Assembly: GCA_943357105.1 (NCBI GenBank)
Contig: CALRGC010000001.1
Coordinates: forward strand, 17,045 to 81,044
Origin: Candidatus Magasanikiibacteriota bacterium
Lineage (GTDB): Bacteria > Patescibacteriota > Patescibacteriia > Magasanikbacterales > GWA2-37-8
Direction: 5' to 3'
DNA length: 64,000 nt
Below the pieces are notes generated by a model, which was not told the DNA's origin, did not search any database, and saw only the letters and a list, made by a program, of their open reading frames with translations. This document shows positions 1 through 46,300 of this stretch, piece by piece. How positions within the stretch are numbered: position 1 is the first letter of the stretch; every line of letters begins with the position of its first letter. The translations under genes were made by a program, and so were the position numbers.

Positions 1-98
1 TAAGAGCGGCAGGGAGGAGAGCAAAAACCGTTCACCAACCTGTTTTGTTTCTAAATATTTTGGAAATAAAATAAGTGAACGGTTTTTGTTTTTTATAG

Positions 99-127
99 AT
101 TGCCAAAAGCGTTTTTTTACATTATAA
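99..127 (+). promoter_or_regulatory. sigma70-like promoter (TTGCCA-17-TATAAT) for the MgtE-N/CBS gene
   Basis: TTGCCA at 99-104 and TATAAT at 122-127, followed by an AAGGGG RBS and ATG at 150. Confidence 0.5.
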
Positions 128-149
128 TTAAGGGGTAATAATTTTTGGT

Positions 150-1364
150 ATGCCATATTTAAGTCGTATTTTAAATAGCACTGTCAGTGATAGTAGTGAA
201 GCGGTAGTTGGCAAGCTAGAAGATATTTTGGTGAAACCAAAAGCGGGGGAATATTGTCCGCTTGAATATCTGATTGTCAAAAAGCGTCATTCCAAAAAAA
301 GAGTAATTATTCCTTATGAGGCGGTGGAAAATTTTAGCAAAGAAGAAGTTTCTTTGCGTGTTTTATTTTCCAAAATAAATTTTTTGGATACTGTGCCAGA
401 AGGTTATGTCCGACTTAATCGCGATGTGATGGATCAACAAATTGTGGATTTGTCCGGCGCGCGGGTAGTGCGGGTAAACGATCTTCGTATTGGTGATTTT
501 GAAGGCAAAATGAATGTTTTAGCGATAGATATTAGCAATCGCGGGCTTTTGCGTCGCTTGGGTGTCACTTGGCTGGATCTATTTAATTTGATGAAAGTAA
601 ATTTGATTGACTGGCGCAAAGTGCAACCGGTAAAAGGCGAATTAAAATTGGATAGCGCTTCAAAAGATCTTACGAAATTGCATCCGGCCGACATCGCCAA
701 TATTGTGGAAGATTTAAATTTAAAACAAGGTAGTAATTTAGTTTTGTCACTCGACAAAAATACGGCCGCGCAAGTATTTGAGGAGATTGATCCGGAGATG
801 CAAAAATTGTTGATTTCTCATCTTAGTCCCGAACACGCCGCGCGTATTAGTGAGCGCATGTCGGTAGATGAGCTAGTGGATTTGATTCACTTTTTGCCGG
901 AACACAAATCCAAACAACTGATGGATTATGTGGAAAAAGATCGTATGAAACATGTCCACAAACTTTTGAAATATGAGGACAATACGGCCGGTGGTTTGAT
1001 GTCGCTAGATTATCTCAGTTGTTTACCGGAAGAGACGGTGGGTCAGGCGATAGAGAAAATTAGAAAACTTTCCGATAAATTTCGCGCCATTAACTATGTC
1101 TATATTTTGGATGATAAAAATAAATATAAAGGGGTAGCATCTTTGCGCAGATTGCTCATCAATGATTCTAGCACTCCTATTGGTAAGATTATGAAAAAAA
1201 GTACCAACTTACCGGTGTTGCATCCAAATCATTCCATAAAAAGAGTGGCTCATATGATGACCAAATATGATCTCAATACCGTGGCCGTGCTGGATAAAGA
1301 TAATAATTTTTTGGGAGTCGTAACGGTCGATGATGTGATGCGCGTATTACTGCCAAACGCCTAA
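150..1364 (+). CDS. MgtE N-terminal domain plus CBS-pair cytosolic protein with no membrane domain
   Basis: 404 aa; MgtE_N-like helical region followed by tandem CBS domains (end ...VLDKDNNFLGVVTVDDVMRVLL); no TM helices; stop lies 3 nt before the next gene. Confidence 0.7.
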   Translation: MPYLSRILNSTVSDSSEAVVGKLEDILVKPKAGEYCPLEYLIVKKRHSKKRVIIPYEAVENFSKEEVSLRVLFSKINFLDTVPEGYVRLNRDVMDQQIVDLSGARVVRVNDLRIGDFEGKMNVLAIDISNRGLLRRLGVTWLDLFNLMKVNLIDWRKVQPVKGELKLDSASKDLTKLHPADIANIVEDLNLKQGSNLVLSLDKNTAAQVFEEIDPEMQKLLISHLSPEHAARISERMSVDELVDLIHFLPEHKSKQLMDYVEKDRMKHVHKLLKYEDNTAGGLMSLDYLSCLPEETVGQAIEKIRKLSDKFRAINYVYILDDKNKYKGVASLRRLLINDSSTPIGKIMKKSTNLPVLHPNHSIKRVAHMMTKYDLNTVAVLDKDNNFLGVVTVDDVMRVLLPNA

Positions 1365-1367
1365 AAT

Positions 1368-2624
1368 ATGAGCACTGAAAAAAAACCTAAAAGACTTTGG
1401 ACCAAGATTTTATTAATCAGTTCGGTAGTTGGGCCGGGGATTATTGCCGGCACAGCCGATAATGACGCCGGTGGTATCGCCACTTATTCGGTGGCTGGCG
1501 CGCAATTTGGATATCATTTGATTTGGGTATTATTTTTGGTTACTTTTGTTTTGGCGATTACGCAGGAGATGGGCGCGCGTCTGGGAATAGTCTCAGGCAA
1601 AGGTTTGGCCGCTTTGATTCGTGAAAATTTTCCTTTCAAAGCGACATTTCTCATAATACTTTTAAGTTTTATCGCCAATTGGGCTAATATTTTGGCCGAT
1701 GTCGCCGGTATGTCGGCGGTTGCTAATATTTATGGAATTCCAGCCTGGATTTTTGTTTTAAGCTCGGCGGCTTTGCTTAGTTGGTTGGTAATTTCTGGTA
1801 ATTTTAAAAATATTCAGCGGGTATTTCTCACTTCTTCGCTAATGTATCTGGCTTATGTATTTGCCGGATTTATGATTCATCCGGATTGGACTGAGGCGAC
1901 CAGATCAATTGTGGTGCCGTCAATTATTCCAACCGCCAATTTTTTATTTATGGCGATTGCCTTAATTGGTACTACCGTTACTATCTGGGGACAGTTTTTT
2001 GTGCAATCATATTTTGCGGAAAAGGGTGTGCGAGCCGAAGATTTGCCGTTGGCTAGATTGGATGTTGGCGCGGGCGCGATTTGGACAAATTTTGTCGCTT
2101 TTTTTATCATTGTGGCGACTGCCGGCACGCTGTATGTGAAGCATATTAACATTTCCGATGCCGCGGACGCCGCGTTGGCACTCGAGCCATTTGCCGGCGC
2201 TTTGGCCAAGCATCTTTTCGCGTGGGGTTTATACAATGCCGCCATGCTTGGCGCCGGTGTGGTGACGATTTCTACCGCTTACACGATTACCGAAGCGTTT
2301 GGTTGGGAGGGTAAAATAAATGCCGGTTTTAAAGAATCCGCTTCGTTTTATAAGATATTTTTGTTTTGTATTTTTTCGGCGGCTCTGCTTGTGCTCGTGC
2401 CACATTTTCCGATAGTGCCGGTACTGGTCGCCTCGCAAGCATTAAATACTTTTATCTTGCCAATCTTGTTTATTTTTTTGTTGCGCCTGCTCAATCGCAA
2501 AGATATTATGGGCAAATATACCAATGGAATGAGTAGTAATATTTTTGGTTGGGTTTCAATTGTCGGCCTATCGCTTTTAAATTTAGCTTATTTTGTCTAT
2601 CTGATTGTTTCTAAATTTAGATAA
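1368..2624 (+). CDS. Nramp/SLC11-family divalent cation transporter with a non-canonical metal-site motif
   Basis: 418 aa; about 11 TM helices; TM1 motif GPGIIAGTADNDAGG; TM6 region lacks the canonical MPH motif. Confidence 0.8.
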   Translation: MSTEKKPKRLWTKILLISSVVGPGIIAGTADNDAGGIATYSVAGAQFGYHLIWVLFLVTFVLAITQEMGARLGIVSGKGLAALIRENFPFKATFLIILLSFIANWANILADVAGMSAVANIYGIPAWIFVLSSAALLSWLVISGNFKNIQRVFLTSSLMYLAYVFAGFMIHPDWTEATRSIVVPSIIPTANFLFMAIALIGTTVTIWGQFFVQSYFAEKGVRAEDLPLARLDVGAGAIWTNFVAFFIIVATAGTLYVKHINISDAADAALALEPFAGALAKHLFAWGLYNAAMLGAGVVTISTAYTITEAFGWEGKINAGFKESASFYKIFLFCIFSAALLVLVPHFPIVPVLVASQALNTFILPILFIFLLRLLNRKDIMGKYTNGMSSNIFGWVSIVGLSLLNLAYFVYLIVSKFR

Positions 2625-3762
2625 TTTTGGCGATTGTTGTTAGCCAATTGGCGGCGGCTTTTTCCCAAGAGTAATTTTCGGCCACAGCGTGGCCTTTTTT
2701 AATATAACTATTTTTTAGTTCGGTGTCAGTGAGTAAAATTTTCATCGCTTGACTCAAGTCACTTATCTTATTGGGGTTTACTAGATAGCTGGCGTTATCG
2801 GTAATTTCCGGCAGAGAGGCGCGATTGGCGGCAATGGTAGGTGTGCCCATACGCATAGCTTCAATGAGTGGGAAGCCAAAACCTTCATAGAAACTATCAA
2901 AAATAAATAATGAAGACAGAGAATAAAAAATTGGTTTATCTTCGGCGGCAATGTAGCCAATAAATTTTATATTTGATGCCAGCGGAGATTTGGTGGCGGT
3001 ATCATAAATCTCTTTATTTTTCCAGCCGGGCGCGCCAACAATTATTAGTGAATATTTGGCGGTAATTTCAAGGGGTAACTTTTCATAAGCCTTGATAATT
3101 GTTGTAATATTTTTGCGCGGTTCAATTGACCCTAAGAATAAAATAAAATTTTCCGGTAGACCATATCGGTTTAGGACTCTGGTTTTGTCGGCGGCCAAAT
3201 TTGGGTTGGTTAGAGAAAAATTATCATTCACACCAGGGTAGATTACCTCTATTTTTTCTTTTGGTATTTCATAATAATTCATCAGATCACGTTTGGTATT
3301 GGCCGATGGTACGATGATTAGTTTGGCACTTTGACACTGTCTTTTTGAGCCGATTATTTTGTGCCAGAAATTTTGTTTGGCGGTATAGAATTCGGGGAAT
3401 AGTTTAAATGACAGGTCGTGAATAGTAAGTATATACGGAATTGTAGAGGAAAGATTAAAAAAATTAAGATTAGGCGCGTACCAGCAGTCAATTTTGACCG
3501 GAATAAATTGATCGATTTTTATCAATTTGAGCGTAAGCGCCAGATTGAAAATTTTATTTGGATAACGGCTTTCTATATAGTGAACATTATCCTGTTGCCA
3601 GGGTAAATTTTTGAGATTATAATTTTTGACGGCATTATAAAATAAATAATATTGATTTTTGGTATCCAATTTAAAAACAGCGCTGAGGAGCTCATAAGTA
3701 TACTCGCCAACGCCGGTTTTGTTTTTGGTCATGAGTGGGCGGATGTCGATGCCGATATTCAT
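2617..3762 (-). CDS. glycosyltransferase family 4 (GT1 fold)
   Basis: C-terminal EGFGFPLIEAMRMGTPTI motif; start trimmed to MNIGIDIRPL because the upstream ORF extension runs into the repeat element. Confidence 0.75.
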   Translation of the reverse strand: MNIGIDIRPLMTKNKTGVGEYTYELLSAVFKLDTKNQYYLFYNAVKNYNLKNLPWQQDNVHYIESRYPNKIFNLALTLKLIKIDQFIPVKIDCWYAPNLNFFNLSSTIPYILTIHDLSFKLFPEFYTAKQNFWHKIIGSKRQCQSAKLIIVPSANTKRDLMNYYEIPKEKIEVIYPGVNDNFSLTNPNLAADKTRVLNRYGLPENFILFLGSIEPRKNITTIIKAYEKLPLEITAKYSLIIVGAPGWKNKEIYDTATKSPLASNIKFIGYIAAEDKPIFYSLSSLFIFDSFYEGFGFPLIEAMRMGTPTIAANRASLPEITDNASYLVNPNKISDLSQAMKILLTDTELKNSYIKKGHAVAENYSWEKAAANWLTTIAKII

Positions 3763-3784
3763 AGTGTGTTCAAGTATCACGCCT

Positions 3785-3950
3785 GAGAAGACATTTGGCA
3801 ATTTTTACCTGATAAAAGTTCGCATAATTGGCTATAAATTTTCGTTACGGCTCTAAGGGTAGAGCCGTTGCCCTGACGGGCACCACGAAAATTTACTTAC
3901 GCCAATTAGGGGCTCACTTTTATGCGGTAAAAATTGCCAAATGTCTTCTC
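3785..3950. repeat. Structured repeat family 1, copy 1: conserved ~130 bp core inside a 25-bp perfect copy-specific inverted repeat
   Basis: Terminal IR gagaagacatttggcaatttttacc / ggtaaaaattgccaaatgtcttctc; core is about 88% identical to 17006-17135; paired positions covary between the two copies. Confidence 0.8.
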
Positions 3951-5052
3951 AGTCTAGATTATTCTGGAATTGAGAAAACTGTTCGGTTACAAAATTTTTT
4001 ATTTCGTTTTTGAAACGGTCGGTAGAAAAATTTTGCGCGTGCGCGCGAATTTTGGCGCTGTCAAATGCGCTTGAGTCAAAATTCAGCAGTGTATGTAGTA
4101 GTGATTCCCAAGTTTGTTGTTCAAAAAATACTCCAGTTTCATTAGGCAAAACTGTTTCGGTAGCACCTCCCTGACTGTAAGCAATTACGGGGCGGCCAGC
4201 GGCCATGGCTTCGAGCGGAGTGATGCCAAAATCTTCTTTTTGGGGATGGATAAAGGCAATCGCTTCACTGAGAAGCTGAGCTTTTTCATCTTCGGAAATT
4301 TTTCCGTAAAATTCAATATTGGCCTTGGCGATTTTTTTCAGATAAGGATATTCTGATCCGATACCAAAAATTTTTAGCGGCCAACCCAGACGATTGAAAA
4401 CTTTTATTACTAAATCCAGGCGTTTGTATGGCACGAGGCGCCCACCGGCCACATAATAATTTCCTACTTTGGCCGCGGTTTGAAATCTATCGGTATCAAC
4501 CGGCGGAAAAATGACTTGACTGTCACGGCGATAATATTTATTGATGCGACGTTTTACCGTATTGGAATTGGCAATAAAATTATCTACGCGTTTAGTACTG
4601 AGTTGATCCCACAAACGCAAGCGATGAGTCAAAATTGGTAAGAAAATTTTTACCAGCCGATTATTTTTGAGATCCGACAGATAATTATTGCCGTCACCCC
4701 ACAAAAAACGCGGCGGGGTGTGACAATAGGCGATATGCAGAGTGTCGGTGGAGGTGATTATGCCCTTGGCAAACCCGGACGAAGAAGAAATAACCAGATC
4801 ATAGCCCTGGAGTTGGTGACGCTCGGTGGCTACAGGCATCAGTGGCAAATACCACTGGAAGATTTGATTGACAAAAGGCAAGCGATTGAGAAAAGAAGTA
4901 TGAATTTTATCCTGATCCAAATAATTTATTTTGTTGGCATCGTGAAATAAAACAAAAATTGGCGCGTCCGGCCAAATTTCGTGTAAGGCTTTGAGCACTC
5001 TCTCCGCCCCTCCATCTTGAGACAGATAGTCGTGAACTAGGGCGACCTTCAT
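3949..5052 (-). CDS. glycosyltransferase family 4
   Basis: 367 aa; N-terminal MKVALVHDYL; GT4-like; TGA stop at 3949-3951 overlaps the repeat IR. Confidence 0.75.
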   Translation of the reverse strand: MKVALVHDYLSQDGGAERVLKALHEIWPDAPIFVLFHDANKINYLDQDKIHTSFLNRLPFVNQIFQWYLPLMPVATERHQLQGYDLVISSSSGFAKGIITSTDTLHIAYCHTPPRFLWGDGNNYLSDLKNNRLVKIFLPILTHRLRLWDQLSTKRVDNFIANSNTVKRRINKYYRRDSQVIFPPVDTDRFQTAAKVGNYYVAGGRLVPYKRLDLVIKVFNRLGWPLKIFGIGSEYPYLKKIAKANIEFYGKISEDEKAQLLSEAIAFIHPQKEDFGITPLEAMAAGRPVIAYSQGGATETVLPNETGVFFEQQTWESLLHTLLNFDSSAFDSAKIRAHAQNFSTDRFKNEIKNFVTEQFSQFQNNLD

Positions 5053-6470
5053 ATGATGGATCCGGTTTTGCGCAAAACAATAAAAGGAGTTTTAATTAAA
5101 ATTACCAGATCGGTAAATAGGCTCCAATGTTCAATATAGAAAATATCCAGGCGCGCTTCTTCGTCAAAGCTCAGATTGCTACGTCCGGAAATCTGAGTAA
5201 TACCGGTGATGCCCGGTTTGATAGCCAGCACGGTTTTGTGCCATTTCTCATATTTGTTTACTTCGCGTTCCTGGTGAGGGCGCGGACCAACCAAACTCAT
5301 TTCACCCTTTAAAACATTATAAAATTGCGGAATTTCATCAATGCTCAATACACGAATAAAACGACCAAATGGGGTAATGCGCGGATCATTTTTTATTTTA
5401 TAAACCGGTCCTTTTTTTTCACTTTTTTCTTCAATTAATTTTTTTTCCAGTTTCAGCGCCTCTTGTCCGTTTTTACCAAACTGTTCGCCGGTGCAATATT
5501 TTTGGTACATTGAACGGAATTTGAGGGTAAGAAATTTTTTGCCTTCTTGCCCCACGCGTTCATTTTTATAAATAATCGGCGTTCCGGTTTCGAGCAAAAT
5601 TATTAACGAAGTAATCAAAAATATTGGCAGAAAAATTATCATTAAAAATAGACTGCCGACAATATCCACGGTGCGTTTGAGTATGCGACCCCAGCCACCC
5701 AGGCGGGTGCGACGCAATTCAATAATTGGAATGCCGGCAATCGTGGATACGGCCATATTGGAAGAAACGGTAGCGAAAAGGTCGGCCGAATATTTGAAAG
5801 TGATGTGGTGCTCGTTGGCAAAATCTATGGCTTGCAGAGCTTCATCTTCGTGACTCTTGGGATCGGTAAAAATAATTTCATCAATACCGGTTTTTTTCAA
5901 AGTTTTTAGTTGGTTTAAATTAAAATTAGGAATCTGTCCAATAATTTTATAACCAAAATGGGAATGTGAATCTAAAGTATTCAAAATTTGTTCTTCTATT
6001 TGGCCACTACCAATAATCACGGTGCGGCGCAGACCAAGCCCCAGGCGATAGCAGAGAATTTTTAGCAGTCGCCAAGCGATTCTGCCGGCATAAACATAGA
6101 TAATGGCAAAAATCCAACTAGCTAAAACCAAAAAGCGTGAATCAAATTTTTGGAAAGTAAAAAAGACATAAATTGTAATCGCGGCAAACCCAGTAGCACA
6201 GGCAAAAAAGACGCGATTGAGTTCGCTGGTGAGTTTGCGATTGGGATTGGCGCTGTATAACCCGGAAAAAGCGAAGATAACTATCCAGCCGCCCGCGACT
6301 ATAAGTGCCAATGGCCAATATTTTTCCCAAGGTAAATTAAAAATCACCGGACGAATGGCCGTAGTGATCTTGGCAAAACGCAAACTATAGGCCGTAAAGG
6401 CGGCCAATATCAGCATGAGATAATCTAGAGGTAGCTGTAAAAAAGTAAATGTAAGTTCAAAGCGTTTCAT
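5049..6470 (-). CDS. undecaprenyl-phosphate sugar phosphotransferase (WbaP/bacterial sugar transferase family)
   Basis: 473 aa; N-terminal TM helices; C-terminal sugar-transferase domain (LSIDEIPQFYNVLKGEMSLVGPRP); 4-nt overlap with the downstream GT gene. Confidence 0.8.
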   Translation of the reverse strand: MKRFELTFTFLQLPLDYLMLILAAFTAYSLRFAKITTAIRPVIFNLPWEKYWPLALIVAGGWIVIFAFSGLYSANPNRKLTSELNRVFFACATGFAAITIYVFFTFQKFDSRFLVLASWIFAIIYVYAGRIAWRLLKILCYRLGLGLRRTVIIGSGQIEEQILNTLDSHSHFGYKIIGQIPNFNLNQLKTLKKTGIDEIIFTDPKSHEDEALQAIDFANEHHITFKYSADLFATVSSNMAVSTIAGIPIIELRRTRLGGWGRILKRTVDIVGSLFLMIIFLPIFLITSLIILLETGTPIIYKNERVGQEGKKFLTLKFRSMYQKYCTGEQFGKNGQEALKLEKKLIEEKSEKKGPVYKIKNDPRITPFGRFIRVLSIDEIPQFYNVLKGEMSLVGPRPHQEREVNKYEKWHKTVLAIKPGITGITQISGRSNLSFDEEARLDIFYIEHWSLFTDLVILIKTPFIVLRKTGSII

Positions 6471-6529
6471 GCTCTATATTTTAAGGCAAAATGCCAATAT
6501 AGTCAATTTATTGACAAAAGTCGCATTTC

Positions 6530-6892
6530 GTGCAGAAGCTCGTCGGGGAGGCCATCCCCGCCGAAATGACCGTCGGCGGCGTCACCTATGAGATCCTCTC
6601 CTTCCACGAGGAAGGTGAAAACTCGGTCGGCGGCGGTGTCATGGTCGAGCGTTCCAAGACGCTCAACGCCCACCAGGGCAAAAAGGAGCGGGAACACCTT
6701 CTGGCCAACCAGGCCGACATTCCGGTGGCCTGCCGCGGCAGGACGGCTTTCGTCTTCACCGACGAAAGGCATCCTGACGTTCCCGACGAGGGCGTCTACT
6801 ATGTCTGCTGGCGCGACGGCCGCTGGGTCGAGGGCTGGGACTGGCTCGACGAAGACTGGGGTCGCGGCGACCGGGTGCTCCGTCGCAAGTAG
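6530..6892 (+). CDS. hypothetical protein encoded in a high-GC (~63%) island, probably foreign or a gene fragment
   Basis: GTG start; strong GC3 codon bias unlike its neighbours; antisense ORFs on the other strand are GC artefacts. Confidence 0.4.
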   Translation: MQKLVGEAIPAEMTVGGVTYEILSFHEEGENSVGGGVMVERSKTLNAHQGKKEREHLLANQADIPVACRGRTAFVFTDERHPDVPDEGVYYVCWRDGRWVEGWDWLDEDWGRGDRVLRRK

Positions 6893-7091
6893 CCCTAGGA
6901 TTCTGGGCACCTTGGTCCTCAAGGTCGCTTGGATCATCCTTCGGTTCACTTTGGTAATTGGCCCACATCAGTACGATCCTTCGGGATACGACTGGTGTGG
7001 GCGCTTCGTTTTTATGCTGGTTATGGTCTTAAAATAGGTTGACAAAAACACTTTTTGGATGTATGATAATAATATATAATTAGAAATAATT

Positions 7092-7328
7092 ATGCAAAAA
7101 AATAATTTACAATTTTCAGTTGTTTATCAACAAGATCTCGACGGTGGTTTTATTGCTACTGTTCCCGCTTTGCCTGGTTGCCATACTCAAGGAAAAGATT
7201 TATCTCAGACTACTTTTAGAATAAAAGAAGCGATAGATTTGTATTTGGAAAGTTTTAAATCTGAAAAATCTATTCGTCAGGCCGCACAAAAACAAATTTT
7301 ATTTGGAACGGTAATGATAGGTGGTTAG
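7092..7328 (+). CDS. hicB: HicB-family antitoxin
   Basis: 78 aa; HicB/UPF0150 N-terminal domain (FIATVPALPGCHTQGKDLSQ). Confidence 0.7.
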   Translation: MQKNNLQFSVVYQQDLDGGFIATVPALPGCHTQGKDLSQTTFRIKEAIDLYLESFKSEKSIRQAAQKQILFGTVMIGG

Positions 7329-7566
7329 TATGGTTAGCTTTAGTCAATTACCAAATCTAAAAGCAAAACAATTAGTGCGTGTTTTGGAAAAGATAGGTTT
7401 TGTGGTGGTCAGGCAAAAAGGCAGTCACGTTATTTTGGTTAATGAAAAAAGTAAACTGCGTACCGTTGTACCAGTGCACACAGGAGAAACAATTAGAAAA
7501 TCATTGTTGATGGAAATTATAAAACAAGTAAATTTAACGGTAGAGAATTTTTTGGAGTTGTTATAA
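7321..7566 (+). CDS. hicA: HicA-family mRNA interferase toxin
   Basis: 81 aa; KGSHVIL...VPVHTGETI motif; 8-nt overlap with hicB. Confidence 0.7.
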   Translation: MVSMVSFSQLPNLKAKQLVRVLEKIGFVVVRQKGSHVILVNEKSKLRTVVPVHTGETIRKSLLMEIIKQVNLTVENFLELL

Positions 7567-45903: not shown

Positions 45904-46295
45904 GCGTTTACAGTGGATGATCGTCCCTGACCTAGTCAGGGGAGGAAAGTCCGAACACTTTCTTTGAAAAAAGAAAAAAGGCAGTGGGTAACACCCACCG
46001 GTTTGGCGGCAACGTCAAACAAGGGAAAGCGGCACAGAGACAATACTATCCCAGAGCAATTTGGGAGAAAGGTGAAAAGAATATGGAAGTTCTGACTCTA
46101 GAACAGAGCTACCATATACCGACCGTTGTGAGACGGTCTGGTGCCAAGCCCTGCCTGGGTGCAAGAGCAGCCTATGAGAGAGACATAGGAAAAGTTCGCT
46201 CGCTTGATTTTGGCAGTAATGCCAAAACTAGATAAATGATCGTCACGTCTTGCTAAACACAAGACGTACAGAATTCGGCTTATAACTGTAAACTC
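45904..46295 (+). ncRNA. rnpB: RNase P RNA (bacterial type)
   Basis: P4 halves gaggaaagtccgaac and acagaattcggcttat; P1 pairing gtttacagt/actgtaaac; gggtaacaccc element; terminator follows. Confidence 0.8.
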
Positions 46296-46300
46296 ATCAA

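Follow-up and report, generated by a model that had tools for sequence, protein, structure and literature searches.

An operon of two genes near the start of the window

We analyzed 64,000 nucleotides (nt) of the forward strand of contig CALRGC010000001.1 (positions 17,045 to 81,044; hereafter the window), from assembly GCA_943357105.1 of a Candidatus Magasanikiibacteriota bacterium, and report here on an operon near the start of the window in which a gene for a pore-less relative of the MgtE Mg2+ channel (ORF1) is followed by a gene for a transporter of the SLC11/Nramp family (ORF2; Table 1). Both genes lie on the + strand with a gap of 3 nt, which is evident from the open reading frames and the junction itself and which a preliminary description of this locus had already given correctly. 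The two genes also share one frame, and translation of positions 150-2621 in that single frame meets one stop codon. A fusion of the two proteins would need just one read-through or mutation of this stop codon, with only TAA-AAT standing between them. A Shine-Dalgarno-like purine run is not present in the junction sequence directly 5' of the ORF2 start, and we infer that translation of the two genes is coupled. The promoter candidate ahead of ORF1 matches the consensus at 11 of 12 positions and has the top score within positions 1-3000. Terminator-like sites were no more numerous than expected from shuffled sequence, and it is only tentatively that the weak hairpin past ORF2 may be taken as the end of the operon.

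Table 1. Features of the ORF1-ORF2 operon, in coordinates of the window (aa, amino acids; TM, transmembrane helix).
Feature	Position	Strand	Description
Hairpin and T run	about 24-100		Upstream terminator at the start of the window, ahead of the promoter
Sigma-70-like promoter, TTGCCA-17-TATAAT	100..128	+	21 nt before the ORF1 start; consensus match only
ORF1	150..1364	+	404 aa; pore-less MgtE-like partner with two PRC barrels, MgtE_N and a CBS pair
Two PRC-type beta-barrels	150..644	+	ORF1 aa 1-165
MgtE N domain, helical	678..983	+	ORF1 aa 177-278; PF03448, E 8e-25
CBS pair	1002..1352	+	ORF1 aa 285-401; PF00571, E 1.4e-17
Junction TAA-AAT-ATG	1362..1370	+	ORF1 stop at 1362-1364, 3-nt spacer AAT, ORF2 ATG at 1368
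ORF2	1368..2624	+	418 aa; predicted NRMT-clade SLC11/Nramp transporter
TM1 metal-site motif D33-A34-G35-G36	1464..1475	+	NRMT DxxG; D33 and G36 align with EleNRMT D55 and G58
TM6 metal-site motif T202-T203-V204-T205	1971..1982	+	NRMT TxxA/T, from alignments
Terminator-like hairpin, weak	2680..2694	+	56 nt past the ORF2 stop, within the convergent glycosyltransferase gene

ORF2 belongs to the NRMT clade of SLC11 transporters by sequence and predicted structure

ORF2 matches the Pfam Nramp family (PF01566) with an E-value of 4.9e-85 over aa 37-387, and scores 118 bits against the NCBIfam MntH model, for which the cut-off is 430 bits. Its top solved relative is EleNRMT (7qia; E 1.4e-89, 304 bits), with about 41% identity over the full length, while the classical Nramps give weaker matches (E 1e-19; 73 bits for DraNramp). 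The NRMT half of an AlphaFold model could be placed on 7qia_A with a target-normalized TM-score of 0.95 and a root-mean-square deviation of 2.2 A. The NRMTs (Nramp-related Mg2+ transporters) carry the signature DxxG-TxxA/T in place of the DxxN-A/CxxM of classical Nramps (Ramanadane et al. 2022, PMC8806188), and EleNRMT was found to carry both Mg2+ and Mn2+ without H+ coupling, with mutation of Thr224 abolishing Mg2+ transport and affecting Mn2+ transport only mildly (PMC8806188). Members of the clade are expected to move Mg2+ and Mn2+, not Ca2+, with no H+ coupling. In ORF2, TM1 reads ...GTADNDAGGIATYS, which places D33-A-G-G36 at the columns of the canonical D-P-G-N in the alignment, and TM6 reads IGTTVTIW, with T205 at the Met column of the MPH motif and W207 at the His column. 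T202 is aligned to EleNRMT T224 and T205 to A227, while Q357 occupies the position of EleNRMT Gln379. Among the ionizable residues of the proton pathway, a hand-counted pairwise alignment puts DraNramp H232 opposite W207, D131 opposite I108, and E124 opposite F101, but E134 opposite the acidic D111. This type of metal site is not peculiar to ORF2, since a signature of this kind was present at every one of the 80 related loci that we examined, and the equivalent of Gln379 is near-universal among them.

We assign ORF2 to the NRMT clade on sequence and modeling grounds: no other solved structure matches it nearly as well as EleNRMT, it has the DxxG-TxxA/T signature together with the Gln, and the model fits 7qia. 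The label of a classical MntH was rejected, given the score far under the cut-off and the different metal-site signature. The preliminary description had noted DAGG for DPGN in TM1 and a missing methionine in TM6, from which it suggested a non-canonical Nramp of altered selectivity, possibly for Mg2+. Alignment with EleNRMT and DraNramp bears out both readings of the metal site, and the suggested selectivity agrees with the NRMT signature and the EleNRMT match. The transporter class itself had been named, assayed, and structurally solved before this work.

ORF1 carries PRC barrels and the cytosolic domains of MgtE

ORF1 was thought in the preliminary description to consist only of the MgtE N domain and a CBS pair; both domains are there and the pore is indeed missing, but these domains are preceded by PRC-type barrels that fill the first ~165 aa, or about 40% of the protein. 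The first barrel scores as a PRC-barrel (PF05239; E 2.5e-6 and 3.4e-7), and in an AlphaFold model built from 62 homologs (mean pLDDT 86) the strands of this region lie at aa 11-69 and 97-127 with a pLDDT of about 90. The barrel part is kept in all ORF1 relatives (68 loci). The top solved relative of ORF1 is the cytosolic domain of Thermus thermophilus MgtE (2yvy, E 6e-30), and a Foldseek comparison of the model with the MgtE cytosolic domains 8gpv and 2yvy gave target-normalized TM-scores of 0.86-0.87. Likewise, the match to TIGR00400 (mgtE) covers the cytosolic portion only (profile positions 19-251 of 450), and the MgtE pore domain PF01769 was not found in ORF1 with Pfam. The protein stops right after CBS2 and is soluble, with transmembrane segment, plug helix, and hydrophobic tail all absent. 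As both the pore domain and the plug helix are absent, ORF1 is not an MgtE channel and cannot conduct ions.

Full-length MgtE channels with the same front end do exist: four unannotated metagenomic proteins of ~600 aa (P0452, P0477, P0479, and P0483) combine PF05239, PF03448, PF00571, and PF01769. ORF1 looks like the cytosolic sensor half of such a PRC-bearing MgtE channel, encoded by itself as a soluble protein.

To compare the sensor residues, we took the roles of the MgtE Mg2+ sites from Maruyama et al. 2018 (PMC5882242) and mapped the columns through an alignment of 130 homologs of ORF1, hereafter partners. The acids of site Mg4, at the interface of the N domain and the CBS pair, are kept (ORF1 D240 and D395 for MgtE D91 and D247), as are that of site Mg6 (D244 for D95) and half of Mg5 (D374 for D226). 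Among 68 diverse partners, Asp stands in the D91 column in 52, in the D95 column in 66, and in the D247 column in 51. A Mg2+-dependent clamp between the N domain and the CBS pair of ORF1 is plausible from these residues.

The gene pair is conserved across bacteria and archaea

When genomes, one for each species, were scanned with an alignment of NRMTs, at least 594 loci came up, of which the best 80 were examined, a partner being counted if an ORF1 homolog lay on the same strand within 4 kb. A partner was present at 68 of the 80 loci and not found at 12; two of these 12 have no upstream DNA, which leaves 68 of 78 informative loci. The partner lies directly upstream of the NRMT gene in 64 of the 68 cases, with an estimated median gap of about 20 nt and nine overlaps of 4 nt; in three others one gene intervenes, and in one the partner is downstream. 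In the reciprocal direction, we collected 80 metagenomic loci with the partner alignment, and an NRMT gene comes right after the partner in all 71 that have enough downstream DNA. The pair occurs in bacteria of the Chloroflexota, Nitrospirota, Acidobacteriota, Desulfobacterota-type lineages, Omnitrophota, Armatimonadota, Margulisiibacteriota, and Patescibacteria, and in archaea of the Woesearchaeota, Nanoarchaeota, and Methanobacteriaceae. The linkage is two-way, near-obligate, and far beyond chance, and the pairing that the preliminary description had pointed out at this one locus is a widely conserved one.

In Raoultibacter, a member of the family from which EleNRMT comes, the pair likewise occurs and its gap is again 3 nt. 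The Eggerthellaceae partner, represented by that of Raoultibacter massiliensis (L084, 2645-3997), is 450 aa long, with a plug-like segment and one hydrophobic TM helix at its end; because of this C-terminal helix it is anchored in the membrane, unlike the soluble ORF1. M-box riboswitches precede partner-NRMT operons in Pelotalea chapellei and a Thermoleophilia metagenome-assembled genome (L078, 2457-2622; L061, 1133-1302), and one also precedes a partner-less NRMT gene in Peptococcaceae CEB3 (L083, 3557-3723). In the family of nrmT genes with a partner, the M-box is present in many members and is not obligatory.

Partners vary at their C-termini in other ways. In many of those from other lineages (L013, L039, L047, L052, L061, and L081, among others), CBS2 is followed by a short tail of strongly basic character, such as P-x-AWKKRLPRIF or SRKKRRKL, which is possibly an element for contact with the membrane or the transporter; it is absent in ORF1 and its closest homologs (L004, L015, L065, and other close homologs). 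At three metagenomic loci (L155, L156, and L157), the match to the partner ends at about aa 262, after MgtE_N, the CBS pair is absent, and the NRMT gene follows ~20-35 nt on. These may be either naturally shortened partners or split genes such as reported for C. acetobutylicum.

The preliminary description had taken the arrangement of the two genes to be undescribed, which proved incorrect. In 2014, Shin et al. reported “mgtE-nramp operons” (their Fig. S5), in which most NrmT genes come after a gene for MgtE's N-terminal cytoplasmic domain, and also described M-box riboswitches ahead of the pair (PLoS Genet, PMC4072509). They showed that two NrmT genes of C. acetobutylicum rescue a Mg2+-uptake mutant, and proposed cytoplasmic feedback regulation or chaperone activity as the role of the partner (PMC4072509). 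The partner gene goes unmentioned in the 2022 paper on the EleNRMT structure (PMC8806188), and we found no later work on it in the literature searched. Our locus adds a new example, from an uncultured bacterium of a candidate phylum, to a kind of gene pair known since 2014. What is modestly new is that the partner universally starts with PRC barrels, that the linkage is two-way and near-obligate in both bacteria and archaea, and that PRC-bearing MgtE channels exist as the probable source of the partner.

A putative role of ORF1 in feedback control of ORF2

The reading that we favor, and consider reasonably probable, is that the operon of an mgtE-like fragment and nrmT encodes a transporter together with its own regulator, ORF1 being a Mg2+-dependent feedback regulator of the NRMT ORF2. 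Feedback control is the best supported role because of the genomic linkage, the partial retention of Mg2+ ligands, and the riboswitches in relatives; from this we infer Mg2+ as the ligand of ORF1, a contact with ORF2, the direction of the regulation, and a part played by the PRC barrels. ORF2 would be a carrier of the SLC11/LeuT fold whose enlarged site (Asp33, Gly36, Thr202, Thr205, and Gln357) takes up largely hydrated Mg2+, and also Mn2+, and it would most likely move these ions down the membrane potential with no proton coupling, as described for EleNRMT. When cytosolic Mg2+ is high, the ion would bridge the N domain and the CBS pair of ORF1 (through the Mg4-type pair D240/D395 and the Mg6-type D244) and shut the clamp. 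With the clamp shut, ORF1 would bind the NRMT from the cytoplasmic side, plausibly by way of its own PRC barrels, and import would be slowed or blocked; at low Mg2+ the clamp would open and the transporter would be freed. The 3-nt spacing of the genes would lead to roughly equimolar synthesis of the two proteins. We put forward more tentatively the idea that the partner is a detachable regulatory subunit, whose PRC barrels dock on the NRMT and whose N/CBS clamp locks the carrier with Mg2+.

Several observations weigh against feedback control, some of them in ORF1 itself. The Mg5 ligand D250 is replaced by R398 and the Mg7 ligand E59 by Gln, and in the candidate-phylum relatives closest to ORF1 the D250 column likewise holds Arg and the E59 column Lys or Gln. 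Since ORF1 stops before the plug helix, it has neither the ligands E258 and D259 of that helix nor sites Mg2 and Mg3. MgtE also binds ATP in its CBS pair, through Y170, R187, D188, N203, and F227 (PMC5529423). In these columns R187 is kept as R333 in ORF1, while F227 is replaced by L375 and D188 by R334, and ATP sensing by ORF1 is doubtful as judged from the alignment. At the level of the locus, neither an M-box nor any other Rfam leader was found in positions 1-3000 at permissive thresholds, and the ORF1 leader of ~20 nt is too short for a riboswitch. The sole Rfam match was to a plant miRNA model (positions 16-94, both strands), which we set aside as it is explained by the upstream terminator hairpin. 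Earlier experiments point the same way, as NrmT proteins, and later EleNRMT, function without the partner (PMC4072509, PMC8806188), and co-expression of the Acidobacterium capsulatum pair Acp2976/2977 had no visible effect (PMC4072509).

Our search for a contact between the two proteins also adds to this side. The tethered AlphaFold model, an ORF1-linker-ORF2 chain predicted from an unpaired alignment that included four fusion-like rows, has both halves well folded (pLDDT 88), and confident docking was not seen in it (pTM 0.59). With the concatenated ORF1 and ORF2 as query, a word-indexed search returned a handful of candidate natural fusions, while in an exhaustive search of 1.84 billion representatives no protein spanning both halves was among the best 150 matches listed. 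The candidates are rare, look like frameshifts, read-throughs, or deletions, and were rejected as evidence of contact. In P0269 and P0270, which lie in high-GC DNA, the linkers are rich in Arg and Pro and look out of frame, and P0282 is a read-through in which the PRC half is absent. In P0264 (531 aa; 12 member sequences on 3 contigs), the partner's EETAGG runs into the NRMT's GGITTYS, so that its TAGG is joined to the DAGG of the transporter with loss of the CBS pair and of the Asp in TM1; this is probably a deletion or chimera, formed by recombination or assembly collapse across the shared AGG. P0242 (L086, 1601-4504; 967 aa) is the only candidate with PRC, MgtE_N, CBS, and Nramp in one open reading frame, and may be either genuine or an artifact. 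Its two halves are joined by an odd linker of ~130 aa with three hydrophobic helices, and its sole contig, of 5.5 kb, has a transposase gene next to it.

Some of these points suit other explanations of the operon. The same module might serve Mn2+ or another transition metal as the substrate of ORF2, with the partner sensing that metal or another signal, which we regard as unlikely. Such a reading would fit the lack of an M-box and the altered D250 and E59 columns, and it recalls the NrmT of A. capsulatum, which has an adjacent partner and no riboswitch and is mainly a Mn2+ importer, giving full rescue of a Mn2+-uptake mutant and partial rescue of a Mg2+ mutant (PMC4072509); EleNRMT, too, carries Mn2+ (PMC8806188). 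The metal site of ORF2 speaks for Mg2+ instead, as the soft Met ligand is absent and Thr202, equivalent to the EleNRMT Thr224 that is needed for Mg2+ and not for Mn2+, is invariant. Moreover, related pairs are preceded by Mg2+ riboswitches, and ORF1 still has the acidic residues of Mg4 and Mg6.

ORF1 might also be co-expressed with the transporter and not gate it, acting as a buffer or chaperone for the imported ion, an idea raised by Shin et al. (PMC4072509), or in CBS-type signaling elsewhere. The silent co-expression of the A. capsulatum pair, the lack of confident docking in the tethered model, and the near absence of genuine fusions would all be expected from a protein of this kind. PRC barrels are, in addition, known from many unrelated protein contexts. 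We nevertheless find this quite improbable, as a linkage that holds in both directions is what subunits of a single machine typically show, the module copied by ORF1 is a dedicated gate in MgtE, and some partners, such as that of Raoultibacter, are held at the membrane by a C-terminal helix, next to their NRMT. That ORF1 is instead a decaying, functionless remnant of an MgtE that lost its pore is suggested by its resemblance to a PRC-bearing MgtE channel cut just ahead of the plug helix. Hundreds of bacterial and archaeal species have intact, full-length homologs (about 400-430 aa, 24-93% identity), 45 positions are invariant among 62 candidate-phylum homologs, and the fold is confidently predicted. 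Because this pattern of conservation is incompatible with decay, ORF1 is not a pseudogene, and we rejected the remnant reading as effectively refuted.

Genomic surroundings of the operon

The nearest relatives of both ORF1 and ORF2 are annotated as Candidatus Magasanikbacteria or Patescibacteria, and the local gene order is the same on a contig (L001) whose ORF1 counterpart is 93% identical. A convergent glycosyltransferase gene overlaps the 3' end of ORF2 by 8 nt. It abuts the operon as part of a convergent cluster (2617-6470) of two GT4 glycosyltransferases and a Bac_transf sugar transferase. Beyond this cluster, the region 6500-7566 contains a stretch of ~450 bp with 58-67% GC, in a genome of ~40% GC, in which overlapping open reading frames on both strands have no Pfam family match, and then a HicB-like antitoxin (7092-7328) and a HicA toxin (7321-7566). 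This ~1.1 kb is missing from L001 between the sugar-transferase gene and a 99-aa open reading frame, and since so close a relative lacks it, the region has the look of a recent insertion. At other places, the window also contains a class A RNase P RNA of the bacterial type (45905-46298) and five tRNA genes.

Significance and comparison with known systems

Few routes of Mg2+ import are known, and the NRMTs are the ones recognized most recently. The locus alone holds nothing categorically new, and it is the surrounding survey that sharpens the question of the partner's role and yields a concrete, testable model for the post-translational control of an SLC11 carrier. If the partner is the detachable subunit proposed above, this would be the first MgtE-style Mg2+ sensor that acts in trans on a LeuT-fold SLC11 carrier, the partner would have been borrowed from PRC-bearing MgtE channels through loss of the pore, and the biochemistry of NRMTs without their partner would so far describe the unregulated state only.

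The nearest known systems for ORF2 are the members of the NRMT/NrmT clade, namely CabNRMT (Ca_c0685) of Clostridium acetobutylicum and EleNRMT of Eggerthella lenta (PDB 7QIA, 7QIC, 7QJI, and 7QJJ). ORF2 has in common with them the DxxG-TxxA/T signature, the Gln of alpha10, an upstream MgtE-like gene, and the loss of both the Met ligand and the His of TM6b, the latter being W207 in ORF2. It differs from EleNRMT in having Thr205 in place of Ala227, either of which is allowed by the published consensus, and in its TM6, where TTVTIW stands for TTIAPW and the Pro is lost, a variant limited to a few loci. Unlike these NRMTs, it comes from a Patescibacteria host, it has no M-box leader, and its transport is predicted only.

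The MgtE-like fragment of the Acp2976 type (PMC4072509) and ORF1 are both single genes directly upstream of an NRMT gene on the same strand, homologous to MgtE's cytoplasmic domain. Unlike in the description of Shin et al., in which the term PRC-barrel is not present, ORF1 and all 68 relatives have about 165 aa of PRC-type barrels ahead of the MgtE-like part, and ORF1 and its closest homologs are without the C-terminal TM helix of the Eggerthellaceae.

With the MgtE channel of Thermus thermophilus (PDB 2YVX and 2ZY9), ORF1 shares an N domain and CBS pair of the same fold and the acids of Mg4 (D91/D247), Mg6 (D95), and half of Mg5 (D226). It differs in the missing sites Mg1, Mg2, Mg3, and Mg7 and the half-lost Mg5, in the ATP-stacking Phe227, which has become Leu, and in its extra N-terminal PRC barrels. 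We found no paper that links PRC barrels to MgtE or Nramp in the literature searched. The PRC-bearing MgtE channels found by our exhaustive search have the same order of PRC, PRC, MgtE_N, and CBS and 30-34% identity along the whole of ORF1, and they run on into the plug helix and the MgtE membrane domain PF01769, whereas ORF1 ends before both. The NRMT partner seems either to derive from this subfamily of MgtE or to be its sister.

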